Shown here piece by piece: positions 34,124 through 53,130 of a DNA stretch of 64,000 nt. Every line of letters begins with the position of its first letter. The stretch's first letter is position 1. The stretch spans positions 122,694 to 186,693 of the forward strand of contig MGFX01000001.1 of NCBI GenBank assembly GCA_001792115.1, read 5' to 3'. The notes beneath the pieces were generated by a model that was given only the letters and a program-made list of their open reading frames with translations, ran no database searches and was not told the DNA's origin. A program made the translations under genes and the position numbers. The DNA comes from Candidatus Woesebacteria bacterium RBG_16_42_24. Its GTDB lineage: Bacteria > Patescibacteriota > Microgenomatia > UBA8517.

Positions 34124-34210
34124 AATCTCCAATTAAATTCCAAAATCCTAATTATTAATTTGATAATTCTAGATTATCTGGAAACTGGAATCTGGAAATT
34201 GGAAATTAGT
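34124..34210. repeat. heptamer-iteron palindromic element upstream of pilin gene
   Basis: TCTCCAATTAAATTCCAAAATCCTAATTATTAATTTGATAATTCTAGATTATCTGGAAACTGGAATCTGGAAATTGGAAATT. Confidence 0.65.
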
Positions 34211-34233
34211 ATATGTTTTGTTACACTTAAGTC

Positions 34234-34548: not shown

Positions 34549-34591
34549 GAAGTCTTTATTTAGTATCTGTTTTGGTATTTAATAATATTAG

Positions 34592-34939: not shown

Positions 34940-34940
34940 T

Positions 34941-35330
34941 ATGGAAAACTTTATCGCTCAAAGAGAAATACCAATAAACGGTACTATCGAAGGGTTTGGC
35001 CCACTGGGGTTGGAGGGTAGAAATCCCCAAGAGTCAACGAACATATTTAATTTCTTCCTCTCAAGCACGATTGGGCTACTGACTATTATTGCTGCTATTT
35101 GGTTTCTTTTTGTGCTTATCACGGGGGCAATTAGTATTATCTCTTCCGGAGGCGACAAGGCTAAAGTAGCAGAAGCCAGGGGGAGAATTACAACGGGGCT
35201 TATCGGGTTAATAGTAGTTATTGCCGGAATATTTATCTTAGAGCTTATCGGAACTTTAATCGGGTTTGATCTTATCTTAAATCCGGGGGAGTTTATTCAA
35301 AGAATCCCGCCCTGGATTGTTGGTCCATAA
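34941..35330 (+). CDS. T4SS pilin-like protein, paralog 4
   Basis: 129 aa; LITGAISIISSGGDKAKVAEARGRITTGLIGLIVVIAGIFILELIG. Confidence 0.55.
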   Translation: MENFIAQREIPINGTIEGFGPLGLEGRNPQESTNIFNFFLSSTIGLLTIIAAIWFLFVLITGAISIISSGGDKAKVAEARGRITTGLIGLIVVIAGIFILELIGTLIGFDLILNPGEFIQRIPPWIVGP

Positions 35331-35679
35331 AATGCTAGCCCAAGTTCCAGCTCCAAATAAGATAACTAACCCCGCCTTAGGGAATAATCTCCAAAACCTA
35401 ACGGGCGCTGAATTTTTTGAAAAATTTGTTCCCATGTTAATTAGTCTTGTACTTATCATCGGGGTTGTCATCTTTACTTTTGTTCTAGTCTTGGGGGCGA
35501 TAAGTTGGATTTCCTCCGGGGGAGACAAGGCTCAAGTCGAAAGCGCAAGGGGGAAAGTTACTACGGCTATTATCGGGCTAGTTCTTCTCTTTTCAGCCTG
35601 GGCAATTATTAATCTAATTGAGCTATTTTTCGGGATAAACATTTTAACACTTGACATTCTTAACTTAGCAATTCAATAA
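35317..35679 (+). CDS. T4SS pilin-like protein, paralog 5
   Basis: 120 aa; LVLGAISWISSGGDKAQVESARGKVTTAIIGLVLLFSAWAIINLIE. Confidence 0.55.
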   Translation: MLVHKMLAQVPAPNKITNPALGNNLQNLTGAEFFEKFVPMLISLVLIIGVVIFTFVLVLGAISWISSGGDKAQVESARGKVTTAIIGLVLLFSAWAIINLIELFFGINILTLDILNLAIQ

Positions 35680-35694
35680 TTAAGGAGTAGAGAT

Positions 35695-36021
35695 ATGTTA
35701 GCCCAAGTCAATCTATCACCTCAAGGCCAGTGGACCAATCTGGGTGGCCTTACAATCCCAGGAATCATAGCTGGTTTTATTACTGCTGTATTAATTATTG
35801 CCGCAGTTGTTTTCTTCTTCATTCTCGTAATTGGAGGGATAAGATGGATTACTTCTGGTGGAGATAAGGCCAATACGGAGGCTGCCAGGGGTCAAATTAC
35901 CGCCGCCCTGGTTGGGTTAGTAATTGTCTTTGCCGCCTGGGCAATAATTCAGCTACTTCAGACATTCTTTGGCATGAATATTCTCCAAAATCTTACTATA
36001 CCTACTGCAAACACTCCGTAA
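35695..36021 (+). CDS. T4SS pilin-like protein, paralog 6
   Basis: 108 aa; LVIGGIRWITSGGDKANTEAARGQITAALVGLVIVFAAWAIIQLLQ. Confidence 0.55.
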   Translation: MLAQVNLSPQGQWTNLGGLTIPGIIAGFITAVLIIAAVVFFFILVIGGIRWITSGGDKANTEAARGQITAALVGLVIVFAAWAIIQLLQTFFGMNILQNLTIPTANTP

Positions 36022-36033
36022 GACTTATCTAAG

Positions 36034-36061
36034 GCAGCGCCCGAAAGGGCGCTTTTTTGTT
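36034..36061 (+). terminator. rho-independent terminator
   Basis: GCAGCGCCCGAAAGGGCGCTTTTTTGTT: GC-rich hairpin followed by T-run, directly after pilin paralog 6. Confidence 0.7.
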
Positions 36062-36113
36062 GGCAAAGGGCAAAATTGCTTTTTTTGTATCTACGCCCTA
36101 AACTTTTAGTGAT

Positions 36114-36434
36114 ATGTTGCCGCCGCCATGGTCGGATCCAACCGGGAATACCCCCGCAACTTTTAGTGACATCGAGGTCGCCTTTGCCAGGATCGTATTG
36201 GTAATTTTGGGACTTGCCGCAATTGTTCTTTTCATCATGCTTCTTGTCGGAGGATTTAAATTTATTACGGCCGGGGGTGACCCCAAAGCCGTGGAGTCGG
36301 CTAAAAAAACTTTGACTTACGCAATTGCCGGAATGGTTTTGGTTGCCTCGGCCTATCTAATCCTTCGCTTCATTGGTGTATTTACCGGCATTGACGTGGT
36401 TAACTTTAGAGTATTTCAACCCCTTCAACCCTAA
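36114..36434 (+). CDS. T4SS pilin-like protein, paralog 7
   Basis: 106 aa; LLVGGFKFITAGGDPKAVESAKKTLTYAIAGMVLVASAYLILRFIG. Confidence 0.55.
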   Translation: MLPPPWSDPTGNTPATFSDIEVAFARIVLVILGLAAIVLFIMLLVGGFKFITAGGDPKAVESAKKTLTYAIAGMVLVASAYLILRFIGVFTGIDVVNFRVFQPLQP

Positions 36435-36440: not shown

Positions 36441-38840
36441 ATGATTCAACTGCCCAAATTACCAAGATTTAGGAATTATGATTTACGATTTAAGATAGCA
36501 CCTATCCAGGGACTTACACTCATTACATTTTCCCTTCTACTAGCGTCTTCACTTTTTCTCTCGATAAAACTTGCCAGCGCCCAAGTCCCCCCACCAACTG
36601 TACCTTGCAATCAAACGAATGAAGACAGGGGTTATCCCGACGAATTCCATTCACTCCGTCCTTACCAGGCAAGTCCCTGTAGCGACGAAACAGAGCCCTC
36701 TGCTCTTTTTTGCGGGAATGACCTGACTTTGCAAGACAGCTTTACGGTAAGCAGAAGCCAAGCATCTCAGTGCGACCCCATAAGTCCGGATACGGAAGAG
36801 TGTATTTTTAAAATAACCCGAAATTTGGATATTGCGGTTGACGTTTCGGGTGCAGAGCTACCCATAATGGGAAGGACTGAGGATGACGTAATCAATTCCC
36901 AAAATCAAAACGAAACCAGAAACGATGCTGAAAAAGTCAACGAGTATGTAAGTTGGTATTTAAATGGTACAAATATTGCCGCCGAATATGGAGATTTAGA
37001 CGCAGGCAATGAAGACGATATCTCAAAACTCGTGAACTTCTCGGGTCCAATAAAAAAACTTCTTCCCGAACGAATAAAAAGAGATGAAATTAGAGAGACC
37101 ATAGAGGCAAGACGAGCAGACAGGCACGACCAGGTTGTTGGATGTATAAGAAGAGAAGGATTTCTCGGAATTTATGTGGGAATCGTCGAATGTTACTCGG
37201 GCGGTGGGGGAACGGAAATTCGCCTTTCCGACCTGGCTGATCATATGCCGCCACAGGAGGAAGATCCACGCTTTGCCAATTATCAAGAGTTCCTCTGGGC
37301 ATATTTTAGGTGGCGGGGCTACGAATGTCCGAATATCCCAATTGTCAATATTACCGTCTGCTTCGAGGCGCCCTGGCTGTTTAATTACTGGGCCGACCTT
37401 TATTACCTAACGCCCCTTTCTTCCACCGAAGACAGGCTGGGACAAATTCAAGTCGTCAATCCTTACGTGCAACCCGTGACTCCCGGAATGTTTATTTTTG
37501 TGAATAGTTTAGTTACAACTCCAGCAAAACTTTTTTTTGCCCACATGGAAGAATCGCAGGAGCTGGCCGATACTCTTCAAGATACTTTTGTTCCCAAGGG
37601 GAACCCCAAAAGCGGTCCGGTCTCAGGAGTAAGCCCGCCCGAATATTGCGACTTAACCGAAATTAGAACCAACCCGGGTGACGACCTTTTTGCAGGAGAG
37701 ATTGGGGTGGACCTAACTTATACTGCCGACTTTTCCTGCACCTTTGATATATTCGACCCGCCGGACCCGGTTGATAGATACCGATGCAGCGAACTCTATG
37801 GGGGTGTCTGTGTATCGGATGATTACGATTGCGACGAAATGGACGGACAACTCGATTGTCCTTCGGGGTGGAGATGCGGTAGACCCGAGGGTAGCTGTAA
37901 CGCCCAAAGACCTAACCCGTCTTGTCCGGCAACTGCGCAGGTGGTTCTGAATACAGTGACCAAAACTCCATTGGTAGACGATATTTGGTCTAGGCTTGTT
38001 GCCGGAGTTTCTGGGGTGTTCAAAAGAATTTTCCCCAAAGTAGCGCCGGGGGCACCCGTTGAGGGAATTCTTGACATTCCGGCGGCGACCGGAGTCACCT
38101 ATAGCGCTGAAATTAATAACGTCCCTGTCCCGGTTGCCGCCGGGAATCCGGGAAACCAGCGTGGCCCAGCCGCGGAGCTTTATTTTCCCCATATAGGAGG
38201 AATTGAGCAATACTTCTTACAATGCATCCAAACTGCCCTTAGGCCGCAGGGTTTTGGGGAAGTTTGCCCCTCGGGGGAACCTCCCGAAGTGGTTACAACC
38301 TGTCCGTCCGTACCCGACTCAGCAATCGACAGTAAATGGCTGGGTGTACCTAAACAAAATTACTTAAGGATGGCTAATCAGAGAATGGCTGCCTGTCCCG
38401 GACCTGAAAATAACCTTGCGGAAGAATGCTACAACTACGTAGTAAGTGAATCGCTAGATGAAGGAGTTAATCCTGCCTTTTCCCTGACAATGTGGTTTAA
38501 CGAAAGTGGTGCAAGCAATTACTGCACATCTCCTACTTTTGATTTTGGTATAAAAAATGGTGCACCTGCTGAAAACATCGTTGAACAACTCGACTTATTT
38601 TTGGTCCAACCATTCAGAATAACTGCTGCCTGCAGGAGCGACCCCGCCTGGATAGAACCAATGGAAGCGTTCTTGAGCGTTTTCCACGGAAACTACTACT
38701 GCGACACTTCGTATGATGACGGCGGCTATTATCAAAACACACTTAATAACAGCTGGATCCCGGTAACAGACGGGTGGGGCGGCTGCGGCGGAGGAACTTC
38801 TTTTGGCATCGACTGGCCGACGGATAGTAGCTGTCCATAA
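36441..38840 (+). CDS. large secreted Cys-rich surface protein (candidate pilus-associated adhesin)
   Basis: 799 aa; N-terminal TM/signal, >40 Cys in CxxC/CxxxxC clusters, no catalytic motif; position directly after pilin array. Confidence 0.4.
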   Translation: MIQLPKLPRFRNYDLRFKIAPIQGLTLITFSLLLASSLFLSIKLASAQVPPPTVPCNQTNEDRGYPDEFHSLRPYQASPCSDETEPSALFCGNDLTLQDSFTVSRSQASQCDPISPDTEECIFKITRNLDIAVDVSGAELPIMGRTEDDVINSQNQNETRNDAEKVNEYVSWYLNGTNIAAEYGDLDAGNEDDISKLVNFSGPIKKLLPERIKRDEIRETIEARRADRHDQVVGCIRREGFLGIYVGIVECYSGGGGTEIRLSDLADHMPPQEEDPRFANYQEFLWAYFRWRGYECPNIPIVNITVCFEAPWLFNYWADLYYLTPLSSTEDRLGQIQVVNPYVQPVTPGMFIFVNSLVTTPAKLFFAHMEESQELADTLQDTFVPKGNPKSGPVSGVSPPEYCDLTEIRTNPGDDLFAGEIGVDLTYTADFSCTFDIFDPPDPVDRYRCSELYGGVCVSDDYDCDEMDGQLDCPSGWRCGRPEGSCNAQRPNPSCPATAQVVLNTVTKTPLVDDIWSRLVAGVSGVFKRIFPKVAPGAPVEGILDIPAATGVTYSAEINNVPVPVAAGNPGNQRGPAAELYFPHIGGIEQYFLQCIQTALRPQGFGEVCPSGEPPEVVTTCPSVPDSAIDSKWLGVPKQNYLRMANQRMAACPGPENNLAEECYNYVVSESLDEGVNPAFSLTMWFNESGASNYCTSPTFDFGIKNGAPAENIVEQLDLFLVQPFRITAACRSDPAWIEPMEAFLSVFHGNYYCDTSYDDGGYYQNTLNNSWIPVTDGWGGCGGGTSFGIDWPTDSSCP

Positions 38841-38942: not shown

Positions 38943-40679
38943 GTGATTAAAAAACTGCTCGCATCCCTGCTTTTGTCTATCTTCCTTTTGGTTTCTATCT
39001 TCCCCAAAGTTGCCTCTGCTCAGACCTGGTACAGCCAAGGACCCCTGGAGTGGTATACCAAGGTCTATGACGAAGCCCAATCTCCTCAAAATGAAATATT
39101 TGGGGAGCGCTATACTGCGGCTCAGGTAGAGTGGATCATCTATACAATCGTCACCTGGCCATTTACAAAAATCTTGGGTCCGGAGATCACTACCTGTGCC
39201 CTTAGTACCGATGTTGGTACGTGTATCACGGCTATTATTACAGACGCTAGCCCTCTCCCTAATCTCGCAGCCCTCCCGAAACCCAAAGAAGAAGGCCTAT
39301 TAAAAGTTATGTTTAAGGATAAAGAACTTTCCGGAGTTACTTATGTAAAAAACGTAATCAGAAAGTTTCACTTAGTACCCCAGGCAGAAGCACAAGCGGG
39401 TTTCGGCTTCACAGAAGCACTTCTGCCAATCCAGGCTATGTGGAGGGCTTCAAGAGACATTGCATATGGACTCTTTGTCGTAGTTGCTTTGATTCTGGCA
39501 TTCATGATTATGTTCAGAGTCAAAATCGCCCCACAGGTCGTTATAACCGCCCAGTCCGCCCTTCCCAAAATTCTCATTGCTGTCGTACTTGTAACTTTTT
39601 CCTACGCAATAGCCGGCTTTATTATCGACTTTATGTACGTCGTTATCGGGCTAATTAGTCTTCTGGCAGTTAACTACTTTCCCGACCTTCTCATAAAATC
39701 CATAGCCCCACCCCTCCCCCCCGTTATCACACCAACTGTGATATTTAATACCCTAACCCTAGGGCAGCCATTATCTCTAAACTTTCCTTCGCCATATGGG
39801 ATATTTGGACTTTTTGCCTTTTACTTATTGCTTTTTGCCTTGTCAGGTGCTTTGGTTATTGGCTCTTCTATTGGCCTCATAGGGATTGCTCTGACAGGGG
39901 CGGTTGGGGCAGCCTTACTATTAAGCGTGTTTCCAACTGCTGGGCTGACAGCAATGCTGCTCTTAGTTGGGTTTATCCTCTTTCTAATAGTATTTATCAT
40001 CCTTCTCTGGATGTTTTTCAAAACGTTATTTATGCTTTTTAAGGCCTACGCAGGGGTTATTCTATTGACTATATTTGCACCGTTTCAAATTTTGGTTGGA
40101 ACAGTAGTTCCGAGCCTGGGATTCGGCAGGTGGCTTCGGAGTTTTGTGGCCAATTTAGCTGTTTTCGTGGTAGTTGGGGTTCTATTCCTCCTTGCTTATA
40201 TTTTTGCCATTCAGGCAATGACTTTTGCCCTTCTTGCGAATGGTATTCAAGAAGACGTAATCCTTGGTATTCTAAACGGGATTTTCGGAACAAACATTAT
40301 CGGAACAGCCCAAAACCTCTTTCTCGGCACCAGCTCAGCCGGCTGGCCGCCTCTTTTGGGAACATTGGGGGGGTCGGGAGACGCGGCCGTCTCCTTCCTA
40401 TTTTTAGGAGTAAGCTTTGTCCTATTTACACTTATTCCCAAGGCCGCCGACATCATCCAGGGCCTCATCTCCGGCCGACCATTTGCATATGGAACGGCGA
40501 TAGGTGAAGCCTTCTCTCCTCTTGCCTATCCATTCGGTGTGGCGAAGGGCGCAGCTGAGAAAGGAGTAACGGGATACGTTGGTGAAGGCTACATTAAGCC
40601 CTGGCTTCAGCAAAGATTTGGGCACGGAACACCTGAGGTTGGACGCAGAGGGCTTGGTGGAAAACCTCTCGCTGAGTAA
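38943..40679 (+). CDS. polytopic membrane protein, candidate VirB6/PrgH-like T4SS channel component
   Basis: 578 aa; signal peptide, periplasmic domain then ≥8 TM helices; assignment by topology and gene order (upstream of PrgI/VirB4-like genes). Confidence 0.4.
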   Translation: MIKKLLASLLLSIFLLVSIFPKVASAQTWYSQGPLEWYTKVYDEAQSPQNEIFGERYTAAQVEWIIYTIVTWPFTKILGPEITTCALSTDVGTCITAIITDASPLPNLAALPKPKEEGLLKVMFKDKELSGVTYVKNVIRKFHLVPQAEAQAGFGFTEALLPIQAMWRASRDIAYGLFVVVALILAFMIMFRVKIAPQVVITAQSALPKILIAVVLVTFSYAIAGFIIDFMYVVIGLISLLAVNYFPDLLIKSIAPPLPPVITPTVIFNTLTLGQPLSLNFPSPYGIFGLFAFYLLLFALSGALVIGSSIGLIGIALTGAVGAALLLSVFPTAGLTAMLLLVGFILFLIVFIILLWMFFKTLFMLFKAYAGVILLTIFAPFQILVGTVVPSLGFGRWLRSFVANLAVFVVVGVLFLLAYIFAIQAMTFALLANGIQEDVILGILNGIFGTNIIGTAQNLFLGTSSAGWPPLLGTLGGSGDAAVSFLFLGVSFVLFTLIPKAADIIQGLISGRPFAYGTAIGEAFSPLAYPFGVAKGAAEKGVTGYVGEGYIKPWLQQRFGHGTPEVGRRGLGGKPLAE

Positions 40680-40853: not shown

Positions 40854-43559
40854 TTAACCCCTAGTAGCCTTATCAAAAGCCGCACTCAAAGCCTTCTGTC
40901 CGGCAAGTTTTGCTAGTCTTCTATTAAAGTTAAGTCTACGCTTTATATCTTCCATAGTTATTTCTGTTAGAAATGTTCCTACCTCGGGAGAAAGCTCTTC
41001 CCGCGTTAATGTATTTATGAATTCCGCCAAAACTGTACCTATTGATTTACGCCCTATATCCAAGTCTTTATCGGCAAGGGCCATGTCTATTACACCGACT
41101 GCCCAAAGACCTCTTAGCTGCATAGGGCCCATTTTCTCGATTCTCAGATTTTCAGGTGCATCGGCAGTATTGAAATATACAACAGCTTCTTGCATAAAAG
41201 TCTTGTCCATTTCGGCAATCTTAGGCTTTCTATCTAAAAGAAGTCCACTTAGAAGCTTATATCTTGTCATAATAACGCTGCAATAAAACTGCCAATTGTC
41301 CTCTATTTGACTTATATCCAAATTGTCCACATTCATTTGGGTATCTACCCTAAAAGGAAGCCTTTCCCGCTGCCTCCCTTTAAATTTCTTTGTTTGTTTA
41401 TCCTCTTGGGTCCATCTTAACCACGACGTTCCAAACCCCCTAATTTCATCCTCGTGTACTTGCGGGCCCCTTATTCTACCCTTGCTTCTCCTGGCTTCCC
41501 TCCACTTTTTCAGACCAAATATTTCAGCTACCTGGTCGTTGCCTACAGTATCTCCTCTATTGAAAACAGAGTCTTCAAGGGTGGCCCGAGATAGTTTTTC
41601 TGCAAGCTGAAGCGACTTTTTAGCGTTTTCTCTTCTTTCTTCTGGAGTATTTCCATCAACACTCTCACTCCTCGCAATTTCCTCTATAAGAAGATTCCTA
41701 ACGGCTTCTTCTATTATTGGGTTTGTTTCTCTAAAAAAATTTACATTAGTGCGCGGCTTGAGTTTTCCTTCTTTGTTTCGTAAATCTTTATCATCTTTTG
41801 GAACCACCCTATCAACCCATTTCATATACTCCTGGTTATCGAAAACTGTATTGCCATCCTTATCTTCGCTTACATCAAAATGGTTTAGTTGCTGAAGTAA
41901 GTCCCACGCCCTGGGCACATCGAGCCCAGGCAATAACTCTCGTTTTAAAAACGTCTCTACTATCTCCCTATTTAACTGGTGCCCCCTTCTCTGAGCTTCT
42001 GCCGCCGCACTTCCAATTGCATATCCATGTCCCACTTTCTCTTCCTCCCTAAAAATCCACCCGTCAGCTTGTTTAATTAGCTCTGAACAGTCGTGTACGG
42101 CAAGCCTGGCTCTAGCTTCTCTCGCGATTCCTTTATCAATTTTTTCTATGGCCCCAAGTGATACCTCTAGCCCCCTTACAATATAGGTATTGCCAAAATC
42201 GAGAGTATCCCTGTTCGAATTCTCTATAGCATCTAATTTCTCTCGAACAAAAGCCCTAAGTTCTTCCACTTTTCCTTCGTATCTTTTAACGTCTATTTGA
42301 TACTCCCCCATAGTCATCCTAGATTGTGATTCGGCGGCACTCCTCATCGCCTCTGCGGCAGCAGTTAACACATCTGCCGATTCTTTAGTCCCTTGTTCCG
42401 ATTCGGGTCTAAATTTCTTCTTTGATAATGACGTCTTGACAAAATCGTGGGGTTCTACTCCCAGCTGGAAAAATGCTTCCCTCTGTACGCGCTTCTCTAG
42501 AAATTTCAAGCCTTCCTCTCCCTCTGATTCTCCGTGCATTTTTAACCACAAAATATCCTCCGGGGATCCCGCCACCATTGAAGGTCGCTTTTTAAATCGC
42601 TTTTCAAAACCGATTTTTCTAATTCTTAGCGCCTCCCCGGCGAATGCCGCACGCAGCATTCCTTCTTCTTCGGGTTTTAGGAAGCCCGTTGTACTTAAGG
42701 CTAAATTTTCTGCGTTAATCCCAAAGTTTTTAACATTGTCGTAAACCTCATCCCAAGTACTATCTCCAAGAATATTTAAATAAGTTTGTGTAATATCTTT
42801 AACAAATGCTTTGTGGTCCTGGTCTCGTTCGCTAAAGTTTTTCCACATCTCGTCCCTTTTTTCCATTGCTTTCTTTCTCGTCTCTTCTGATGTCTCATCG
42901 TCAATAATTATTTTTCGAAGGTCTTTAAAATTATCTGGTAATCTACCATCCTCTTTTGGGGGTTCCTCGGGCGGTTTTTCCGGAGGGCCTCCCTCTCCAC
43001 CAGGAGGAGTGCCTCTAGCTTCTTTTTCCCACCCCCTACTTTTTATCCATCGTGCAACCGCTCCCGGAAACCTTTCGACAAATTCATCTGCGGCATGAAC
43101 AGCTGCACCCCCCAGCGAAACCGGTAGGGCATTTAGCAAGCCTTCCCATGTTGACGCCTTTCCTTCCTTCTCAAGCTCCTCAATGTAGCGCATAAGGATT
43201 TTGCCCTGCCAGTGATGGCCCTCTGTCTCACTAATCTCATTTCTATTTACAAGCCCTTCTATAGTGTCGTAAGACCCTTGTAGAACTTCTTTGCTCACCA
43301 TGACATCTGGCCTTCTAGCGAGGCTATGAATTTCTACTTGAAGTGTCTCATTTTTAATATTATCGACCTCTTCTCGATTCTTAACTAACCATGGAGCCCA
43401 CTCTTCTCCCTCCGGTCCCTCAACCCGCCGATGGGGTAAAGATTGGTGTGGGTTGACAGGATTAGCCATAGCCCTTTTTCGAATCTCCCCAATTGAAGCA
43501 CCTTTTGATTCAATAATAATTTCGGGGCCTTTGCCCCCTCCGCCTTCTGCCATATCCAT
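40854..43559 (-). CDS. large acidic cytoplasmic hypothetical protein
   Basis: 901 aa single ORF, opposite strand within the T4SS-like locus; no recognisable motif. Confidence 0.4.
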   Translation of the reverse strand: MDMAEGGGGKGPEIIIESKGASIGEIRKRAMANPVNPHQSLPHRRVEGPEGEEWAPWLVKNREEVDNIKNETLQVEIHSLARRPDVMVSKEVLQGSYDTIEGLVNRNEISETEGHHWQGKILMRYIEELEKEGKASTWEGLLNALPVSLGGAAVHAADEFVERFPGAVARWIKSRGWEKEARGTPPGGEGGPPEKPPEEPPKEDGRLPDNFKDLRKIIIDDETSEETRKKAMEKRDEMWKNFSERDQDHKAFVKDITQTYLNILGDSTWDEVYDNVKNFGINAENLALSTTGFLKPEEEGMLRAAFAGEALRIRKIGFEKRFKKRPSMVAGSPEDILWLKMHGESEGEEGLKFLEKRVQREAFFQLGVEPHDFVKTSLSKKKFRPESEQGTKESADVLTAAAEAMRSAAESQSRMTMGEYQIDVKRYEGKVEELRAFVREKLDAIENSNRDTLDFGNTYIVRGLEVSLGAIEKIDKGIAREARARLAVHDCSELIKQADGWIFREEEKVGHGYAIGSAAAEAQRRGHQLNREIVETFLKRELLPGLDVPRAWDLLQQLNHFDVSEDKDGNTVFDNQEYMKWVDRVVPKDDKDLRNKEGKLKPRTNVNFFRETNPIIEEAVRNLLIEEIARSESVDGNTPEERRENAKKSLQLAEKLSRATLEDSVFNRGDTVGNDQVAEIFGLKKWREARRSKGRIRGPQVHEDEIRGFGTSWLRWTQEDKQTKKFKGRQRERLPFRVDTQMNVDNLDISQIEDNWQFYCSVIMTRYKLLSGLLLDRKPKIAEMDKTFMQEAVVYFNTADAPENLRIEKMGPMQLRGLWAVGVIDMALADKDLDIGRKSIGTVLAEFINTLTREELSPEVGTFLTEITMEDIKRRLNFNRRLAKLAGQKALSAAFDKATRG

Positions 43560-44149: not shown

Positions 44150-45286
44150 ATGGAACAACAACACCCGATACCGCAACAAATCTCCTCTTACCAATTCCGA
44201 CTGGTGGGGGATATGACCCTCAAGCAATTCCTGCAAGTCGGCGGAGGCATGTTAATTGCCCTAATTATTTACTCAACTCCAATCATTGGACTTATTAAGT
44301 GGCCTCTTGTAATTATTTCTGCCTTAACAGGCGCGGCCCTTGCGTTCCTGCCTTTCCAAGAGAGGCCCCTAGAGAAATGGATTTTTGCTTTCCTTCGCTC
44401 AATCTATTCCCCAACCCTTTTTTATTGGAAACGTCTGCCCTCCGAAACCGCTTTTTTCCAAGAACAACCCACAACCCTACCCACCCCCTCGGTAGTTACC
44501 CCGCCGCCTCCCCCCGGGTATCCTGAACTGGCTATAGAAATCACTCCTCCTGTCGCCCCTGCTGCCCCTCTTCCAGCCGGAAGTCCTCAAGGTTTGACTG
44601 CCAAGCCACCCCTTATGGTGCCAACAATTGCCCCTCTGGGTTTTCCTTCATCGGGGCCGGTGTCCCAGGCCCCGAAAGCTCCAGTGGAGCTTGAACCGGG
44701 ATTAACAATCTTTCCTAACCTTGAGGAAGCAGAAAAAACTTTCTTGAGTAAAATCACGGGGCTATTTAGTCTTGCCCCAACCTTGCCTACCAATGAAGGT
44801 CCCGTTAGCGAGGAAGAGAAAAAAGGGCGCCTGAATGTCGTTCCATCAAAGCCAATCAAAATTGAGCCCATCCATGAGGAAAAAGAGGTCCCCGAAGAAC
44901 CCGCACTAGAACCTGTTTATGTTTCTGTTGCACCAACCTTAACTCCCACAAGGAAGTTAGCCGAGGAATTTGCGCAATTTAGTGAGGACGCCGCTCCTCC
45001 CTTTCCTCCCAGTCTTCCAAATGTGATTGTAGGTCAAGTTATGGACTCAAATAAAAAAATCGTAGAGGGAGCAATACTTGAAATTAAAGATTCTGCGGGA
45101 AGGCCCGTAAGAGCACTCAAAAGCAATAAACTAGGACATTTTATGATCGTCACTCCTCTAACTAACGGCCGCTATACAATAGAAATCGAAAAAAATGGGT
45201 TTATCTTTGATACTGTAAGTTTTGACGCGCTGGGAAACGTCATTCCGCCGATAGCGATCAAGGCCAAGGAGATAACCAATGCCTAA
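44150..45286 (+). CDS. PrgI-family (VirB3-like) T4SS membrane protein with Pro-rich linker and C-terminal CarboxypepD_reg-like beta-sandwich domain
   Basis: N-terminal ~100 aa: QFRLVGDMTLKQFLQVGGGMLIALIIY...LPFQERPLEKWIFAFLRSIYSPTLFYWKR matches the PrgI family pattern; followed by PPPPGYPELA... linker and GQVMDSNKKIVEGAILEIKDSAGRPV...GRYTIEIEKNGF domain; overlaps start of VirB4 gene. Confidence 0.55.
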   Translation: MEQQHPIPQQISSYQFRLVGDMTLKQFLQVGGGMLIALIIYSTPIIGLIKWPLVIISALTGAALAFLPFQERPLEKWIFAFLRSIYSPTLFYWKRLPSETAFFQEQPTTLPTPSVVTPPPPPGYPELAIEITPPVAPAAPLPAGSPQGLTAKPPLMVPTIAPLGFPSSGPVSQAPKAPVELEPGLTIFPNLEEAEKTFLSKITGLFSLAPTLPTNEGPVSEEEKKGRLNVVPSKPIKIEPIHEEKEVPEEPALEPVYVSVAPTLTPTRKLAEEFAQFSEDAAPPFPPSLPNVIVGQVMDSNKKIVEGAILEIKDSAGRPVRALKSNKLGHFMIVTPLTNGRYTIEIEKNGFIFDTVSFDALGNVIPPIAIKAKEITNA

Positions 45287-48023
45287 ACTATCTTTTCCTA
45301 CTCTCCCTATTGCGAACCCTTTCAAGGTACCTGATACTCCGATTATTGCCACCTCCCAGGACTTACTACCAATAGCAGACATTGACCAAGATGTTGTGGT
45401 TTACAAAGAAGGTGGCGCGGCATTGGTGGTTGAGACTACTTCTTTAAATTTTGGACTTCTTTCGGAGAAGGAGCAGTATGCCGTAATTGCGGCATATGCG
45501 GCACTCCTTAACTCCCTTTCTTTCCCAATTCAAATTCTGATCCGCTCCCAGAGAAAAGATATTAGCCACTATATGGAATATCTCGCTCAGGCAGCCAGGA
45601 AGGGTATGGATCCCAAACTTGCCAAGATAATGGAGGGGTATAAACTCTTCATCGTTGACGCCGTAAAAAAGAAAAATGTTCTGGGTAAAAAATTCTATAT
45701 AATAATCCCCTTTAGTCCTCTTGAGTTGGGTTTGGCTAAATCCATAAGCTCCCTTACCAGGTCCTCCGGCCCCCTTCCTTATCCCAAAGCATATGTAATT
45801 AAGAAGGCGAAAGACATCCTTTATCCCAGGCGCGACCACTTAATCAGACAGGGGGGGAGGCTGGGAATTAAACTAAGGCAACTTAGCACAAAGGAGCTTG
45901 TTGAGCTCTACTACAACATATTTAATCCCCCACCACCGGCTACTAAAAAGATGGAGGAATTTGCCCCGCGCGAGAGCGGTGGTTTGCCAGATTTTCTAAA
46001 AGCCGGCGCGGGTCTTCTTGGAGGCCATAAACCCCCTACCCAATCCCCACCCGAAGCACCAGTCCCGAGCGGACTTGGAGGATCACCGATCCCGAGTGGA
46101 AATGGAGGACCAACGGCCCCGAGCGGACTTGTCCTGAGTAAAATCGAAGGAGTCGAGGGACCAACGGCCCCGAGCAGAGTCGAGGGGCAGATTGGCCCAT
46201 GGGGTGAAAAGCCGAAGGTATTTTCTCCAACAATTTCTCTTGCCCAGAAAAATATGGGCCTTTTGGATGTCATTGCTCCTCAATCAATTGAGATTGATTT
46301 TGACTTTATTAAATTAAACGGCGTCTATATCCGCACTCTCTATACAGCCATTAGACGCAGGTACGCTTCCCCCGGGTGGATTGAGCAAATTATCAATTTT
46401 GATAGTTCTTTGGACATTTCATTTCATATCTATCCAGTCGAGGGTAAAAGCGTACTTGACGACCTCAGACGCAAAATTGCCGAAATGGAGGCGGAAATGG
46501 AAACGGACATTGAAAGAGGCAAAATTGTCAATCCGGTTACTCAGGCTCAGCTGGAGGATGCATTGGCTCTCCAGGAACAATTGGTTAAGGGAATTGAGCG
46601 GTTTTTTGACTTCTCCTTCTATATCAGTATTCCGGCGTCGGACTTAGAGGAGCTTAACCATCTAACTTCCCAAGTAAAATCGACCCTTCGTTCGCTACAG
46701 ATCGAGGGAATTCCGGGCGCCCTTGATTGTGCCGACGCTTTTATCTCAGCCGGGCCATTCGGGTTGGACAAGATGGCCGTAACCAGAAACATGGATACAA
46801 CCAGCCTGGCAACGACTTTCCCGCTAACGAGTGCGGAGTTATCTTCCGACAAAGGAGTACTTTACGGAATAAATTCACAAAACGAGTCTTTCATTATTTT
46901 TGATAGATTCTCCTTGGAAAACTCCAACATGACAATATTTGCCACATCAGGAGCCGGAAAAAGTTATTTTGTAAAGCTCGAGGCCTTAAGAACCTTAATG
47001 CTAGGAGCTGAGATTATCGTCATTGACCCGGAAAGTGAGTATAAGACTTTGGCCGAGGCCGTCGGAGGAGAATTTATTTCCTTCTCCTTCTCCTCCCCTT
47101 CAAAAATTAACCCATTTGATTTGTCAGCTGTATATGAAGAGGGTGAGAACTCGTTGGGACTTAAGATTCTGTCCCTCCACTCTCTTTTTAAGGTCATTAT
47201 GGGGGCACTCACCCCAACCCAGGAGGCGCTTTTGGATCGGGCCCTAATCATGGCCTATCGCGGAAAAGGAATTACCCAAGACCCAGCCACCCAAAAGAAA
47301 GAGCCCCCCCTAATGGAGGACCTTTATAAATCACTCGTGGGGATGGAAACGCCGGATGCGATGGACTTGGCCGCCAGAATCGAAAAGTTTGTAAAGGGAA
47401 GCTTTGTGGGAATATTTGACCAGCAGACAAATATCGATATTAAAAACTCCTTTACTGTGTTCTCCGTCAAGGACCTTGAGGAAAGCCTTCGGCCTATTGC
47501 TATGTTTATTATTCTTGATTTTATTTGGACCAGGGTTAAAAGGGACCTTAAAAAGAGGGTTTTAATAGTGGATGAGGCCTGGCACATGATGCGCTACCCC
47601 GACTCTGCCCAATTTTTGTGGTCTGTGGTTAAAAGGGCTAGAAAATACTTTCTAGGTTTGACCACCATTACGCAGGACGTGGAGGATTTTTTGGCCCAGG
47701 ATATCGGAAAAGCCATTGTTACAAACTCCGCCCTCCGCGTACTTCTCAAACAGTCCCCGGCCGCAATTGACAATATCGGCCAAGTATTTTACTTGTCTGA
47801 GGGAGAAAAACAGTTGCTTCTTGCCGCAAATATCGGAGAGGGGATCTTTTTCGCCGGTGCTCACCACGCTCCCATTAGGGTTGTAGCCTCGCCCGAAGAG
47901 CACGGCCTAATAACCACCAAGCCGCAAGAGCTTTTGCAAAAAGAGGCGGCGTCTGCCCAAGTCGCCCCTTCTGAAGCCGCATCTATCGCCCAAGCAACTG
48001 TCCAGGGGCTAGGAAACCTTTAA
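45279..48023 (+). CDS. VirB4/TrbE/PrgJ-family type IV secretion ATPase
   Basis: 914 aa; Walker A TIFATSGAGKSYFVK, Walker B VLIVDEAWHMM, CagE/TrbE/VirB4 C-terminal region; Pro/Gly-rich insertion (aa ~230-300). Confidence 0.8.
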   Translation: MPKLSFPTLPIANPFKVPDTPIIATSQDLLPIADIDQDVVVYKEGGAALVVETTSLNFGLLSEKEQYAVIAAYAALLNSLSFPIQILIRSQRKDISHYMEYLAQAARKGMDPKLAKIMEGYKLFIVDAVKKKNVLGKKFYIIIPFSPLELGLAKSISSLTRSSGPLPYPKAYVIKKAKDILYPRRDHLIRQGGRLGIKLRQLSTKELVELYYNIFNPPPPATKKMEEFAPRESGGLPDFLKAGAGLLGGHKPPTQSPPEAPVPSGLGGSPIPSGNGGPTAPSGLVLSKIEGVEGPTAPSRVEGQIGPWGEKPKVFSPTISLAQKNMGLLDVIAPQSIEIDFDFIKLNGVYIRTLYTAIRRRYASPGWIEQIINFDSSLDISFHIYPVEGKSVLDDLRRKIAEMEAEMETDIERGKIVNPVTQAQLEDALALQEQLVKGIERFFDFSFYISIPASDLEELNHLTSQVKSTLRSLQIEGIPGALDCADAFISAGPFGLDKMAVTRNMDTTSLATTFPLTSAELSSDKGVLYGINSQNESFIIFDRFSLENSNMTIFATSGAGKSYFVKLEALRTLMLGAEIIVIDPESEYKTLAEAVGGEFISFSFSSPSKINPFDLSAVYEEGENSLGLKILSLHSLFKVIMGALTPTQEALLDRALIMAYRGKGITQDPATQKKEPPLMEDLYKSLVGMETPDAMDLAARIEKFVKGSFVGIFDQQTNIDIKNSFTVFSVKDLEESLRPIAMFIILDFIWTRVKRDLKKRVLIVDEAWHMMRYPDSAQFLWSVVKRARKYFLGLTTITQDVEDFLAQDIGKAIVTNSALRVLLKQSPAAIDNIGQVFYLSEGEKQLLLAANIGEGIFFAGAHHAPIRVVASPEEHGLITTKPQELLQKEAASAQVAPSEAASIAQATVQGLGNL

Positions 48024-48027: not shown

Positions 48028-49836
48028 ATGGCAAAAGAAGTCTCTTTAAAAATAACCTACTCACAAGCTCCGGGGGTAAGAAAGCCTACAGTCGAAAAAC
48101 TTCATCAAGATATCAAAGAGGCGGGCTACGGCTTTTTCCAAAAAAACCCAGAATATGGGCCTTCTTTTTTACTCTTTTCCTCGGGTGTAAAAAGTAACCA
48201 ATTAGCAGGTGAGATAAAAAAAGCTCCCGAGAAGGGGCTTGATATTGAAAGCATTTCTCTTCTTGAAGACGTCAACTTAAAATTAAAAACTTTTGAGCAA
48301 GAAAACCCTGAGCTTTTTCGAGACCTGAGCGAAACTTACTACGAAGGCGTTTCTCAAATTGAAATCACCGAGGAGGTCGGGGGTCCAGGACAATATATCT
48401 CTCTTAAGCCTTCCGCTGACAACACATATTATGAATTTTCCCCGGGGCCATCCTTAGACCAAGCAGGAATCGATATTGGCCCCGCCAGAGAGGCCGCCTC
48501 CTTCGCCCTTAACAAAATTGCTGAACCGGTCAAAAAGAAAATTGTCGAAGCCGGAGTGAAAGTCGCTACAAAGGCCGTCACAAAAGCCGCTGTTGGGACC
48601 GCCACAAAAGTAGGGGTACAGGCTGCGGCTCAAGCCGTCGGTTCAACCGTTCCGATAATAGGAAATATCATCGCTTTTATTACCACAACTGTTATAGCTG
48701 GCATTATCGACCGGGCTTTAATCGCAGCCAAAAAAAGGGCAAGGGACGTTGAGGACGCCGTAGGGGGGGCTATTATAGCCTCCTTGCAGTTTTTGGGTCT
48801 TCTGGGGGGAATCCTTTCGGCAACTTTTTCAACAATTCTTGGAATGGTCATCGTCATAATCATCTCCATACCGTTCACCATCGCCTATATACTCTTCATC
48901 ATTAACTCCGGCGCCTACCTTGTACCACCCTCACAAATTTTAGCTCCTGGTGAAAATCCCTATATAGAGATAACAAAAGTGGCTAGCGAAACGGAATTCG
49001 AAAATTCAGATTTACCAATTAGCGTCACTTATACAATTACCGTCACTCCTTTAAGGGGGTCTTTAACAAACATCTCTATTTCCCACGTATGCGAAATCTT
49101 AAGCCGCAGGCCTACCGACGATTGTCCCGCCCCTACTGATCCAGCACCAGTTTTGATATCACCAGCGACTCCTTATGTATATACGTATACGGTAACTTAC
49201 ACTCAGGCGGATGCTGATTATCGCGATTCCTTGGTCCTCAATACTTTTTCTGTTACCGCAGACACCGACGAAGTTTCCCAAACTACAGCAACGGGGGCGG
49301 CCTCGGTCATTATCGGAAATCCTCCCACGGAGTGTTATACTTTTGATGGTAGCTGGGACGCCAGTTCTCAAGCACAAGGTTACAAAAACACGCTACTAGG
49401 TGCCATTACCACCCTCACTTCTAACTATACTCCTTTTGCCCAAAAGGTCTGTACAGGCGGACAGCTAGTACGGCTTGAATACACACAAAACTTAGGTTGT
49501 CCTGGCGCCTGGGCTTGTGCCTTCAGAAGCAGTGTAATAAGATTTAATGGAGGCGGACTGAATAATCCCAATAGTGCCTTGTATATTTTGACTCACGAAT
49601 CCGGTCATATTGTTAACTACAGACTGGACTCCCTTTACCAACAATATGAAGATTGGCCGGGGGTAGATCAGGAAAGACCGTCTATCTGTTCCTATGCTCC
49701 AGCAAGAACGGAGGCTGCGGAGGCGTTTGCCGAATCGGCTGCATTATATGTAGCGTCGACCCGCTGCACAACCCCGTCTACCTACCCCTCTCTTTACCCT
49801 GCACATTACTCATTTGCTGACCAAGTATTATTCTAG
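48028..49836 (+). CDS. membrane protein with C-terminal HExxH zinc-metallopeptidase-like domain (candidate T4SS cell-wall-remodelling component, PrgK/VirB1 functional analog)
   Basis: 602 aa; central TM bundle (aa ~180-300), C-terminal ...ALYILTHESGHIVNYRL...E... (HExxH + downstream Glu); position after VirB4. Confidence 0.4.
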   Translation: MAKEVSLKITYSQAPGVRKPTVEKLHQDIKEAGYGFFQKNPEYGPSFLLFSSGVKSNQLAGEIKKAPEKGLDIESISLLEDVNLKLKTFEQENPELFRDLSETYYEGVSQIEITEEVGGPGQYISLKPSADNTYYEFSPGPSLDQAGIDIGPAREAASFALNKIAEPVKKKIVEAGVKVATKAVTKAAVGTATKVGVQAAAQAVGSTVPIIGNIIAFITTTVIAGIIDRALIAAKKRARDVEDAVGGAIIASLQFLGLLGGILSATFSTILGMVIVIIISIPFTIAYILFIINSGAYLVPPSQILAPGENPYIEITKVASETEFENSDLPISVTYTITVTPLRGSLTNISISHVCEILSRRPTDDCPAPTDPAPVLISPATPYVYTYTVTYTQADADYRDSLVLNTFSVTADTDEVSQTTATGAASVIIGNPPTECYTFDGSWDASSQAQGYKNTLLGAITTLTSNYTPFAQKVCTGGQLVRLEYTQNLGCPGAWACAFRSSVIRFNGGGLNNPNSALYILTHESGHIVNYRLDSLYQQYEDWPGVDQERPSICSYAPARTEAAEAFAESAALYVASTRCTTPSTYPSLYPAHYSFADQVLF

Positions 49837-49855: not shown

Positions 49856-50428
49856 ATGAAAATCATAGAATTTATTAAAAAAAGAAAACTAATCCTGATT
49901 CTTGTTCTGGTTCTTACCGCATGGATAGCAAATTCTATTCTTTCAAGAATCCCTGAGCGGCCCCAGGGTCCGGGGGAGCCCGGTGTTAGCTACAGGAATC
50001 TAGTTCCCGGGGTAAGTAGCCGATCTGATGTTATCGAAAAAATGGGAAACCCTGTCGATCAAGCCGCCAAAGGAGAAGAAATTTTACTTAGTTTTAAGTC
50101 TACAAGTCCTACAAGAACCCATGAAGCGATAGTAGACAGCGGCAACACTCTTTCTTTCATAAAGGAGATTGTCTCTGTAAATGACGATAAACATATCGCT
50201 GATATCACCTCCCAACATGGAGAAGCCCCCCATACCCTTTACGGGCCGCACTCTATCAATGGTTTTGATCTGTTCGTCTATCCCGATAAGGGCCTTGCCT
50301 ATATCGGTAATCCTTATGGCACCCAAGGAACTATTCTGGAAATCTGGTATTTCCCACCAACGACAATTGAAAATTTTAAGTCGACTTGGGCACCGGGCTA
50401 TTCGAATACTTATCAACCGTCTCAATAA
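49856..50428 (+). CDS. membrane-anchored secreted hypothetical protein
   Basis: 190 aa; N-terminal TM; last gene of the + strand block. Confidence 0.35.
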   Translation: MKIIEFIKKRKLILILVLVLTAWIANSILSRIPERPQGPGEPGVSYRNLVPGVSSRSDVIEKMGNPVDQAAKGEEILLSFKSTSPTRTHEAIVDSGNTLSFIKEIVSVNDDKHIADITSQHGEAPHTLYGPHSINGFDLFVYPDKGLAYIGNPYGTQGTILEIWYFPPTTIENFKSTWAPGYSNTYQPSQ

Positions 50429-50432: not shown

Positions 50433-51545
50433 CTAAACCTGAACCCTTACGGGCATTATAAGATGAAGAAAATTGACGTCGGAGGGATCGGTAAAAACTC
50501 CGGGAGCATTCTCGTTGGAAAGCCCTATGTTAACATCACCACCGCTTACGGCGTGCAAGAATTCCTCTAAAAATCTATAGTTAAAAGAAATTTCAAACCC
50601 GCCCGTCGGTAACCCTTCAACTTTTGCCTCAACCTGACTTTCTTGCCTCCCCGCCATCTGGCTTTCAGCGGCAATTACTACTCCGTCCTTTTTAAGTGAA
50701 AACCTAACTATGTTGGCTGAATCCCTGGCAAAAACCGAGGCAAGCTTTACGGCTCTTAAAAGATCATCTTTATCAAGTGATACCTTGATATTTGTCTCTT
50801 TTGGAATTATTTTTTCGAACTCCGGAAAATCACCTTCTAAAATCCGCGTTGATAAAATCGTATCCCCTACTCCAAAAACCACCTGATTATCTTCTTCTCT
50901 GAAAGATAGTTTTAAATCTTGCTCCTCAATCCCTATTCTTGCAAGCTCCGACAAGGCGCTTTTAGGAAGTATTACTTTTTTTTCTTGATGAAAGCCTGCG
51001 TCTTGTAATTTTTTTTGAGAAAGCCTAAAACCATCAGTCGCCACAAGTGAGAGCCCCCCTTTTTTAAATAGAAAGAGAACTCCTGTCAAAATCGGTCGGG
51101 TTTCGTCAGTTGAGGCGGCAAAGACAACTTGAGAAAGAGCCTGTAAAAGCGCTTCTTTCGGGAAGGAATATGAAGTCTTGCCCAAAGATTGAGGGACTTC
51201 GGGAAAGTCTACTGCATTCATTCCGGAAACACTCGAGTTAGTGTTGGATGATGAAATTTCCAAAATTTCTTTTTCAGAATTGAGCATTATTGCACCGGGG
51301 GTAAAATTTACTACAAGTTCGCTAATTACTCGCGACGGGATAGTAATTTCTCCTTCGCTAGATACTTTTGCTCCAATAGAAATGGCCACAGAAACTTCGA
51401 GATTAGTCGAGCAGACTAGGAGTTTGTTTTTCTTGGCCGAGAGGTAGATATTTCCGAGAACAGGCAGTTGAGCCCGAGAACTTGCAAAGCGTGAAGCGGT
51501 TGAAAGTGCTCTTGAAAAATTTTCCTGAAGAACTTCTAATTTCAT
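50433..51545 (-). CDS. dnaN: DNA polymerase III beta sliding clamp
   Basis: 370 aa; three-domain clamp pattern, MKLEVLQENFSRAL N-terminus; downstream of dnaA. Confidence 0.85.
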   Translation of the reverse strand: MKLEVLQENFSRALSTASRFASSRAQLPVLGNIYLSAKKNKLLVCSTNLEVSVAISIGAKVSSEGEITIPSRVISELVVNFTPGAIMLNSEKEILEISSSNTNSSVSGMNAVDFPEVPQSLGKTSYSFPKEALLQALSQVVFAASTDETRPILTGVLFLFKKGGLSLVATDGFRLSQKKLQDAGFHQEKKVILPKSALSELARIGIEEQDLKLSFREEDNQVVFGVGDTILSTRILEGDFPEFEKIIPKETNIKVSLDKDDLLRAVKLASVFARDSANIVRFSLKKDGVVIAAESQMAGRQESQVEAKVEGLPTGGFEISFNYRFLEEFLHAVSGGDVNIGLSNENAPGVFTDPSDVNFLHLIMPVRVQV

Positions 51546-51744: not shown

Positions 51745-53130
51745 TCAAAGGCTATTTTTTATCCCCAATAAATCCTCACGAATTTGCACATCCTCGCTGG
51801 CCAAATGTGTGATTTTTTCAACAGCGTGCATAACGGTTGTGTGATCACGCCCTCCGACCAGGCGTCCAACCTCGGTGAGAGGGAGCCCGAGCTCTCTTCT
51901 TAGAAGATACATAAGTATTTGTCGTGGTCTGGCGATGGGGCGGACCCGCGACTCACCCAGCAAATATTTTTTACCCACAGAGAAGTGTTTAGCAACCGCC
52001 GAAATGACATCCAAGGGTTTTGCCCTTATTTTCAGGGCTATCGACTCCGCCCCTTTACCAATTAGGGAATTTACAAGATCTTCGGAAATTTCTGTTTTTC
52101 TAAGGCGCGCTTGACTTGCGAGTTTGACCAAAAACCCTTCAATAGGCCTGGCAGCGTCAATGTTTGCTGCGATAACTTGTACCAGATCCATGGGAAGCTC
52201 AATGCCCCTCTCTTTAGATTTAATTTGGGTAATAGCACAGCGCAGTTCAAAGTCGGGAGGCGCAATGTCTACAATTAGACCTGCCTCAAAGCGGCTTTTT
52301 AAGCGTTCCTCGAGTTTTGAAATATCTGACGGGGGCTTATCCGAAGTCATAATTACTTGTCCACCGGCGTTAGTTAAGGCGTTAAAAGTGTGGAAGAATT
52401 CTTCTTGGACCGCGTCTTTCCCTGCGATGAATTGAATGTCGTCTATAAGAAGCGCTTTAAGTCTTCTATATTTGTCGCGAAACGCTGTCGTTGTTTTGTT
52501 TCTGATTCCTTCGACGATGCCATTTGTAAATTCTTCCCCAGAAACAAAGAGAATTTTTGCCAAAGGATTCTCTGCAAGGAGGCAGTATCCGATTGCGAGC
52601 ATTAAATGTGTTTTGCCGACCCCTACTCCACCCCAAATAAAAAGCGGGTTATAAGCACTTCCAGGTGTATTTGAAACGGCTTCAGCCGCCGCGTGGGCCA
52701 TTTGATTAGATGAGGAGACGGCGAAATTCTCAAATGTAAAACCTGGCCTGATATGTGTTCGCAAGAAGGCCTCATTAATTTCCTCTTTGTCGTCTTTCTG
52801 AAAAAGTGGGGTGTCGAGGGTGTGCTCAAAAGTCTTTTTATCAGGGTTTTGCCTAACTACAAACGTTAAGTCGCAGGAGGCTTCTAAGGATTTGACAAGT
52901 GAATCTTGGAGCATTCCAAAATAACGACTTTCAATTGTTGTTTTTATAAAGGGGGAAGCGCAGCCGACCTCTATGACAAACCTAGTTCCCTGTTTCTCGA
53001 TTTTTGCAAGGAATGTCTGCGAGAACCACGTTGAGAAAATTGCGGGGGAAACTGAAACTTTAATACTTTCGAGTGTATCGCGCCAGAGTTTTTTAGTATC
53101 AAGCATGATAGTAGATAGTGCAGAGTACAT
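51745..53130 (-). CDS. dnaA: chromosomal replication initiator DnaA
   Basis: 461 aa; AAA+ Walker A GGVGVGKTHL, Walker B LLIDDIQF, C-terminal DNA-binding helix-turn-helix. Confidence 0.9.
   Translation of the reverse strand: MYSALSTIMLDTKKLWRDTLESIKVSVSPAIFSTWFSQTFLAKIEKQGTRFVIEVGCASPFIKTTIESRYFGMLQDSLVKSLEASCDLTFVVRQNPDKKTFEHTLDTPLFQKDDKEEINEAFLRTHIRPGFTFENFAVSSSNQMAHAAAEAVSNTPGSAYNPLFIWGGVGVGKTHLMLAIGYCLLAENPLAKILFVSGEEFTNGIVEGIRNKTTTAFRDKYRRLKALLIDDIQFIAGKDAVQEEFFHTFNALTNAGGQVIMTSDKPPSDISKLEERLKSRFEAGLIVDIAPPDFELRCAITQIKSKERGIELPMDLVQVIAANIDAARPIEGFLVKLASQARLRKTEISEDLVNSLIGKGAESIALKIRAKPLDVISAVAKHFSVGKKYLLGESRVRPIARPRQILMYLLRRELGLPLTEVGRLVGGRDHTTVMHAVEKITHLASEDVQIREDLLGIKNSL

Follow-up and report, generated by a model that had tools for sequence, protein, structure and literature searches.

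VirB3 is normally a minimal anchor in a type IV secretion system (T4SS). According to reviews and the R388 cryo-electron microscopy structure (PMC12857230, PMC9259494, PMC12624023), it is a small protein of two transmembrane (TM) helices whose N- and C-terminal extensions are both cytoplasmic; it wraps around VirB4, a cytoplasmic protein, at the N-terminal domain, and is sometimes fused to it. PrgI of pCF10 has been modelled like VirB3 (PMC12857230). PrgI/VirB3 homologues have been catalogued across Patescibacteria (PMC12102498), and PrgI is essential in Southlakia epibionticum (PMC10633639). Here we describe prgI-ext, a gene for a VirB3/PrgI-family subunit with a C-terminal extension, located at 44150..45286 on the + strand of a 64,000-nt stretch (the window) of Candidatus Woesebacteria bacterium RBG_16_42_24 (MGFX01000001.1, positions 122,694-186,693 of the forward strand).

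The product is a conserved tripartite VirB3 subunit, and its gene is tightly coupled to trsD/virB4. We read it, at a probability of about 55%, as a VirB3-type subunit whose tail is of the cytoplasmic docking type, belonging to a chromosomal, origin-proximal T4SS of an ultrasmall, Woesebacteria-like member of Microgenomatia. The T4SS is essential for the host-dependent growth of the one genetically tractable Patescibacterium. An add-on of about 270 aa with a folded end, on a subunit that is otherwise minimal, offers a testable handle on what differs in the Patescibacterial T4SS.

Comparison with known PrgI and VirB3 proteins

Like PrgI of Enterococcus pCF10 and VirB3 (TrwM of R388 and Agrobacterium VirB3), the prgI-ext product matched the Pfam PrgI family and contained a TM hairpin followed by a helix. 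The genes of these proteins lie directly upstream of, and overlap, a VirB4-type gene, as prgI-ext does, and a role in anchoring the VirB4 N-terminal domain is presumed for all of them. Canonical members, on the other hand, are 10-15 kDa in size (117 aa in PrgI; PMC12857230) and have short cytoplasmic tails, whereas the prgI-ext product is 378 aa long, of which about 270 aa follow the PrgI module as a conserved extension ending in a beta-sandwich. In profile match, TM hairpin and gene position, though not in small size, the protein fits the PrgI family. An earlier note on this DNA, made from the letters alone, had remarked on the unusual size, and the comparison bears it out.

In VirB3-VirB4 fusions (for example on Campylobacter plasmids, and CagE), a large cytoplasmic polypeptide continues from the C-terminus of VirB3, evidence that this terminus lies on the cytoplasmic side. 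Unlike these fusions, prgI-ext adds a tether and a sandwich rather than an ATPase, and its virB4 is separate and translationally coupled.

Another long PrgI is SEML1_0010 of Southlakia epibionticum ML1 (Saccharimonadia), encoded by 903 nt and 300 aa long, in which residues 5-90 form the PrgI domain (Wang et al. 2023, Table S2). Its gene lies near dnaA in an essential T4SS, with a 293-aa gene (TrsD-like by position) and then VirB4 after it. Two classes of the phylum, at the least, therefore have long PrgI proteins. The tail of SEML1_0010, compared by annotation alone, has a small helical domain (TFIIS domain 2/KIX-like) and not a beta-sandwich; the beta-sandwich end is the Microgenomatia/Woesebacteria version of the long PrgI.

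Two other Southlakia proteins carry related folds. SEML1_0004, encoded beside T4SS genes, has a prealbumin-like domain from residue 26 and, after it, one that is BT0923-like. The other, SEML1_0005, belongs to the PEGA-type sandwich proteins, and its domain assignment, 3e8v, is a structure that the C-terminal domain of the prgI-ext product also matched. A functional link of these two proteins to the PrgI tail is possible.

The tail is conserved and undescribed in the literature searched, although the protein family is already in the databases. No C-terminal domain of PrgI is mentioned in the searchable text and tables of the 2025 survey of Patescibacterial T4SS (PMC12102498) and of PMC10633639, and no paper linking PF13620/CarboxypepD_reg with the candidate phyla radiation (CPR) or Patescibacteria was found in the literature searched. 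Nor did that literature describe a transthyretin-like fold in such a context, namely on an inner-membrane subunit of a T4SS.

The PrgI module

The PrgI module spans residues 1-105 (44150..44464, + strand), as delimited by Pfam, hydropathy, predicted helices and column identity. The PrgI-like N-terminus recognized in the earlier note was confirmed by a match to Pfam PrgI (PF12666) at residues 6-85, with 28.8 bits against a cut-off of 27. The same family was matched at E<=1e-3 by 50 of 51 family members.

Hydropathy peaked at residues 28-49 and 45-69. An AlphaFold2 (AF2) model built on 51 sequences gave helices at residues 12-42 and 47-66, forming a hairpin with a predicted local distance difference test (pLDDT) score of about 95, and then a helix at 73-86. 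TM1 was placed at residues 27-45 (nt 44228-44284, + strand) and TM2 at residues 51-69 (nt 44300-44356, +). The AF2 helix after TM2 (nt 44366-44407, +) is aromatic and amphipathic. The module thus has a conserved N-tail and two TM helices linked by a very short loop with K50.

An alignment of 121 sequences contained three conserved blocks with unalignable stretches between them. Column identity per 10-residue block was 67-93% over residues 1-90 and about 50% in 91-105.

Tethers and the conserved helix

Between the PrgI module and the end domain, the earlier note had described a low-complexity linker of about 170 aa. The region is indeed Pro-rich, mostly disordered and about 165 aa long. It is not a single linker: according to the AF2 model and the alignment, it consists of two tethers split by a conserved helix.

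Tether 1 (residues 106-187; 44465..44710, + strand) had a pLDDT below 50 and a Pro content of 29%. It is about 80 residues long in the lineage of the window, against a family mean of 33.5 aa (range 14-82), and in most relatives the conserved helix starts merely 20-50 residues past the PrgI module. Tether 2 (residues 209-272; 44774..44965, +) is rich in Glu, Pro and Lys (17% Pro). Its length was 44-97 aa among the top 120 homologs, and relatives of 421-482 aa had longer forms rich in Gln, Lys and Thr. The disorder predicted by AF2 covered residues 90-186 and 209-270.

The amphipathic helix between them, LEEAEKTFLSKITGLF, occupies residues ~188-208 (44711..44773, +) with 74% column identity. It was modelled at residues 189-207 (pLDDT about 81), and its hydrophobic moment was 0.35. 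A hidden Markov model of the motif, with the consensus LEEAEKSFLSKLTGLF (LEEAEKxFLSKxTGLF), detected the helix in nearly all of 82 related loci.

The C-terminal beta-sandwich

The third conserved block of the alignment (residues ~273-375; 44966..45283, + strand) opens with an invariant AAPPxPP...N motif (residues 281-291), followed by a transthyretin-like/CnaB-type beta-sandwich at residues ~292-375. AF2 modelled a sandwich at ~280-375 with a pLDDT of about 95, having the seven strands of the prealbumin-like fold. Column identity was ~71-86% across residues 291-350, a degree of conservation close to that of the PrgI module.

The earlier note had called this domain CarboxypepD_reg-like. Pfam CarboxypepD_reg (PF13620) matched residues 293-351 with 26.7 bits (E 7e-6), under the cut-off of 32.3, and 44 of 51 family members matched it at E<=1e-3. 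A weak match to the NikL family of NCBIfam was also obtained. The modelled fold indicates that the assignment is right at the structural level, despite the missed Pfam cut-off.

The structural neighbours included a few cytoplasmic proteins, the transhydroxylase beta subunit and PucM. In comparison with the transthyretin-like (TTL) domains of carboxypeptidase D, CnaB2 and the N-terminal extension (NTE) of SusC, the prgI-ext domain scored below the Pfam cut-off and had no conserved isopeptide triad. A CnaB domain that forms an isopeptide bond would point to the cell surface; it was rejected from the absence of the conserved Lys / Asp-or-Asn / Glu triad. No invariant Lys is present in the sandwich: the first strand (NVIVGQV) has none, those of the last strand are poorly conserved, and the near-invariant K348 sits in a central strand. 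No further copies of the beta-sandwich or the helix motif were found in other proteins of the window or related loci.

Start of the gene

The open reading frame (ORF) of prgI-ext starts with ATG at 44150 and encodes 378 aa. Public gene calls for this protein often begin too late, at Met22 or further on, and give products of 357 and 345 aa (44213 versus 44150; L085, 4394..5431; P0001). Residues 1-21 were 78-92% conserved across 120 homologs, and from this strong conservation we conclude that 44150 is the true start. The late public starts are perhaps due to a G-rich stretch ahead of an internal ATG.

A late start cuts into the PrgI domain, and the product is therefore annotated with PF13620 alone. 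Such proteins are named only 'carboxypeptidase regulatory-like', and surveys may overlook VirB3 in Microgenomatia.

L085 is a public 163-kb contig with 99.994% identity to the window across 16 kb and an identical prgI-ext ORF. As it may be where the window itself comes from, it was left out as independent support. Promoter and terminator scans gave scores at chance level.

Coupling to trsD and virB4

The stop of prgI-ext and the start of the next gene share an 8-nt overlap, ATGCCTAA (45279..45286, + strand). The ORF and the overlap, with the next ORF beginning at 45279, are present as the earlier note described them. Its downstream VirB4, on the other hand, was only partly right: the gene encodes a VirB4-type ATPase, but with a TrsD-like domain fused to it.

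This TrsD-VirB4 fusion (45279..48023, +) is 914 aa long and matched NCBIfam conju_CD1110 with 379 bits, TrsD at residues 26-79, and Pfam P-loop_TraG. It consists of a TrsD-like part resembling the VirB4 N-terminal domain (residues 1-215; 45279-45923, +), a Pro/Gly-rich insert of ~105 aa (residues 216-320; 45924-46238, +), recognized by its composition, and the VirB4 ATPase (residues 321-914; within 45279..48023, +). The fusion was found only in the window and four relatives (L001-L003 and L048). Seventy-two related loci have two neighbouring genes after prgI-ext, trsD (~230 aa) and then virB4 (~610 aa).

Whether fused or separate, trsD/virB4 lies directly 3' of prgI-ext in the window and in 76 loci that show both parts. 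Across 78 loci, one exception aside, the spacing from prgI-ext to the gene after it ranged from about -32 to +35 nt, with a mode of -4. This tight junction implies that co-expression with trsD/virB4 is conserved.

In several Woesebacteria the VirB4 ORF is ~1,170-1,250 aa long (L008, 7664..11251; L025, 7719..11234; also L014, L021, L023, L030, L031 and L045). The additional residues in L008 and L025, the two that were scanned, form an intein that carries a LAGLIDADG homing endonuclease and is inserted before the P-loop domain.

Conservation of the architecture

A search of 5.8 billion proteins gave at least 1,370 relatives at E<=1e-3, far too many to be due to chance. The best 120 homologs had E<=1e-83, and all were 303-386 aa long. 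The named ones were annotated as PrgI family protein or as carboxypeptidase-like regulatory domain protein and came from Woesebacteria, Microgenomates or Patescibacteria. An exhaustive search with the first 105 residues gave 1,644 cluster representatives, 1,236 of them at E<=1e-10, and most of the best 150 representatives were 300-480 aa long.

In a scan of one genome per species, relatives were present in 240 genomes, of which 80 were kept (Woesebacteria, Microgenomates, a single Blackburnbacteria genome, and metagenome bins with no name or a wrong label). In 81 of 82 loci, both the PrgI module and the C-terminal domain were encoded by one ORF of 303-384 aa. The loci with named records were all labelled Woesebacteria or Microgenomates. 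An outward walk from a divergent relative (P0255) toward other lineages produced fragments only.

These results bear on whether the long ORF is an artefact, in which a short prgI and a separate sandwich gene were joined by a frameshift or an assembly error. The differing starts in the public gene calls (357 and 345 aa) would fit such an artefact, as would one locus (L083) with the two parts as separate genes. The split in this sole case, however, falls at a run of N in the scaffold, and VirB4 is broken there too. The other short forms were contig-end fragments or visibly frameshifted, and the stop near residue 110-120 that an artefact would require in most relatives is absent, the earlier note having named a stop near residue 120 as what would refute its reading. 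With the architecture kept in 81 of 82 loci and more than 1,000 protein clusters, a fusion by frameshift or assembly is ruled out. The extension, which had been taken for unusual, proved to be standard among the Woesebacteria/Microgenomates loci sampled.

Location of the tail

The VirB3 hairpin has both ends in the cytoplasm, and a third hydrophobic segment was missing in 232 of 233 relatives. The tail would therefore begin in the cytoplasm without an evident exit. The one marginal case (P0103) has as its third segment a more hydrophobic version of the conserved helix; a third membrane segment that places the tail outside was thus rejected. Averaged over the family, Lys and Arg together numbered ~2 ahead of TM1, 1 in the loop of 8 residues and 5.4 in the 36 residues that follow TM2, a distribution that favours the orientation with both termini inside (N-in/C-in). 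A long Pro/Gly-rich insert also occurs in the cytoplasmic VirB4 of the same genome. The strong conservation of the end domain suggests a conserved internal partner, which fits better than a variable host surface. The tail contains no Cys, and three of the four predicted outer domains in the locus hold 8-28; this argument is weak because orf190, described below, has none either. Taken from hydropathy, charge and homology to VirB3, these observations make the cytoplasm the likely location of the tail.

Several points weigh against a cytoplasmic docking tail. The topology rests on hydropathy, charge counts and homology, and a sequence search linking the PrgI module to solved VirB3 structures gave no match. 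The structural neighbours of the sandwich were mostly extracytoplasmic: Gram-positive pilins and adhesins, TTL domains of carboxypeptidases, the SusC NTE domain and the S-layer protein SlaB. The order of anchor, Pro-rich spacer and globular end also describes envelope-spanning proteins of the TonB/VirB10 type.

From these likenesses, the tail could instead lie outside, with its Pro-rich tether crossing the cell wall in the manner of TonB or VirB10 and its sandwich touching peptidoglycan, the S-layer, the base of the pilus or the host. The earlier note took this position, proposing an extension that spans the periplasm or cell wall and may substitute for missing outer components. The fold is typical of extracytoplasmic proteins, the weak NikL-family match agrees with it, and Pro-rich spacers are common among wall-spanning proteins. 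A prealbumin-like domain also stands right after residue 25 of SEML1_0004, encoded beside T4SS genes in Southlakia. Moreover, the component that is hard to find in Microgenomatia is the VirB8-like scaffold, and an outside tail would replace this or another outer scaffold: no VirB8/NTF2-like protein was found in the locus, where the fold of orf190 is BLIP-like/DUF4309-like, and VirB8 homologues are reported to be scarce in Patescibacteria (PMC12102498). On the other hand, TonB and VirB10 have a single N-in/C-out helix and prgI-ext has two membrane helices, forming a hairpin with its C-end predicted inside; a monoderm offers no outer-membrane partner. To reach the outside, the hairpin would have to be inverted, with the conserved N-tail outside and the VirB3-VirB4 contact broken, or ~270 hydrophilic residues would have to be exported without a TM segment. 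The ends of VirB3 are cytoplasmic in solved and modelled systems, and both the charge bias, which favours a C-terminus inside, and the missing third segment speak against an outside tail. The domain also lacks a conserved isopeptide-type Lys and, unlike most outer domains of the locus, Cys, and it is very conserved, whereas pilins are highly variable (PMC12102498). The system is of the monoderm type, and its outer-membrane components are therefore not 'missing', since parts of the VirB7/9/10 type are not expected (PMC12102498). For these reasons we consider an outside tail rather unlikely, and neither the wall-spanning tail nor the substitution for outer components was upheld.

The tail might also end outside by way of the machine itself, being threaded through or released by the T4SS as a tethered plug or a cleaved, cargo-like domain. 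Indirectly, a long and unstructured tether and a fold typical of outside proteins would suit this, as would the place of VirB3 at the mouth of the cavity where pilins are recruited (PMC12624023). No cleavage motif, recognizable secretion signal or VirB3 precedent was seen, however, and six copies per machine could not all pass one channel. This course appears very improbable.

A possible role of the tail

By analogy with VirB3 in R388 (PMC9259494) and with the pCF10 model (PMC12857230), the hairpin and its flanking helices would dock the TrsD-like N-domain of VirB4 to the membrane, and one copy of the prgI-ext product would accompany each central VirB4 subunit, beside VirB6 and the pilins. With the predicted topology, the tether and sandwich would hang in the cytoplasm around the ATPase, so that each machine would have some six docking domains on tethers. 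Protein-protein docking would be the likeliest role of such a tail.

Speculatively, it could keep the VirB4 motor in place or control it, since the motor and its N-domain are separate in this phylum or only loosely joined. Another speculative possibility is the capture of cargo or partners, in a T4SS that usually has no coupling protein or relaxase nearby. The different, helical tail in Saccharimonadia suggests a shared need for a cytoplasmic add-on, with end modules specific to the lineage.

A bolder proposal, which we regard as doubtful, joins these possibilities in a cytoplasmic 'fishing line'. Six sandwich receptors per machine would recruit cargo in place of a coupling protein, or would hold the detached VirB4 motor on a PrgI-TrsD platform. 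The device would be specific to Patescibacteria and essential, with a beta-sandwich end in Microgenomatia and a helical end in Saccharimonadia. If true, this would help explain the choice of cargo by secretion systems that lack a relaxase and are required for epibiosis.

Other genes of the T4SS locus

Upstream of prgI-ext, an array of eight VirB2-like T4SS pilin genes (31572..36434, + strand) was recognized by Pfam PF18895. It is interrupted by a 23S_rRNA_IVP gene (PF05635; 32788..33165, - strand) and by a 248-aa ORF (33286..34032), assigned as uppS by eye from the sequence. Next come a 799-aa Cys-rich secreted protein (36441..38840, +) and a 578-aa polytopic membrane protein (38943..40679, +). 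The latter had no Pfam match; from its position, which is the same in L001/L002, and its hydrophobicity, it is a probable VirB6 analogue. Midway through the locus, the opposite strand encodes a 901-aa hydrophilic protein (40854..43559, -), for which Pfam likewise gave no match, and a 569-aa protein is found at this position in L001/L002.

Downstream of the TrsD-VirB4 fusion lies the gene of a 602-aa membrane-anchored protein (48028..49836, +) with a Cys-containing outer part and an HESGH motif, which resembles that of metalloproteases. The 601-aa protein at this position in L001 carries Peptidase_M23. The 602-aa protein is a probable cell-wall hydrolase and putative VirB1 analogue.

It is followed by orf190 (49856..50428, +), which encodes 190 aa with an N-terminal membrane anchor and a domain modelled by AF2 with a pLDDT of 92. 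The closest match of this domain was DUF4309/YjgB (4ygt), with weaker BLIP-like matches. The gene is conserved in some Woesebacteria, and L001 has an unrelated 330-aa gene at this position. A VirB8-like scaffold was rejected for orf190, from the confident fold, which is not NTF2-like, and the lack of conservation of its position in L001.

The predicted outer parts that are rich in Cys have even numbers of it: the 799-aa protein has 28, the N-domain of a 269-aa pilin-like protein (31572..32381, +) has 8, and the outer part of the 602-aa protein also has 8. The cytoplasmic proteins of the locus have almost no Cys.

Beyond orf190, two ORFs were assigned from the Pfam matches of the same genes in L085, one of 370 aa (50433..51545, -) as dnaN and one of 461 aa (51745..53130, -) as dnaA. 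The T4SS locus thus adjoins the replication origin, and the gene order was the same in a 172-kb relative. This agrees with the origin-proximal arrangement described for Patescibacteria (Quinonero-Coronel et al. 2025; PMC12102498). Other features of the Patescibacterial T4SS, which is related to the monoderm MPF-FATA class (PMC12102498), were also present: the TrsD-like part of VirB4, the pilin array and, among the ORFs scanned, the absence of a relaxase and a coupling protein nearby. No match resembling a type IV coupling protein was found among 10 further large ORFs of the window that were scanned, a selection of its ORFs.

A second gene of the 23S rRNA intervening sequence protein family (PF05635; 43715..44098, +) lies directly upstream of prgI-ext. 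Both PF05635 genes are inside the T4SS locus, and neither is close to an rRNA gene.

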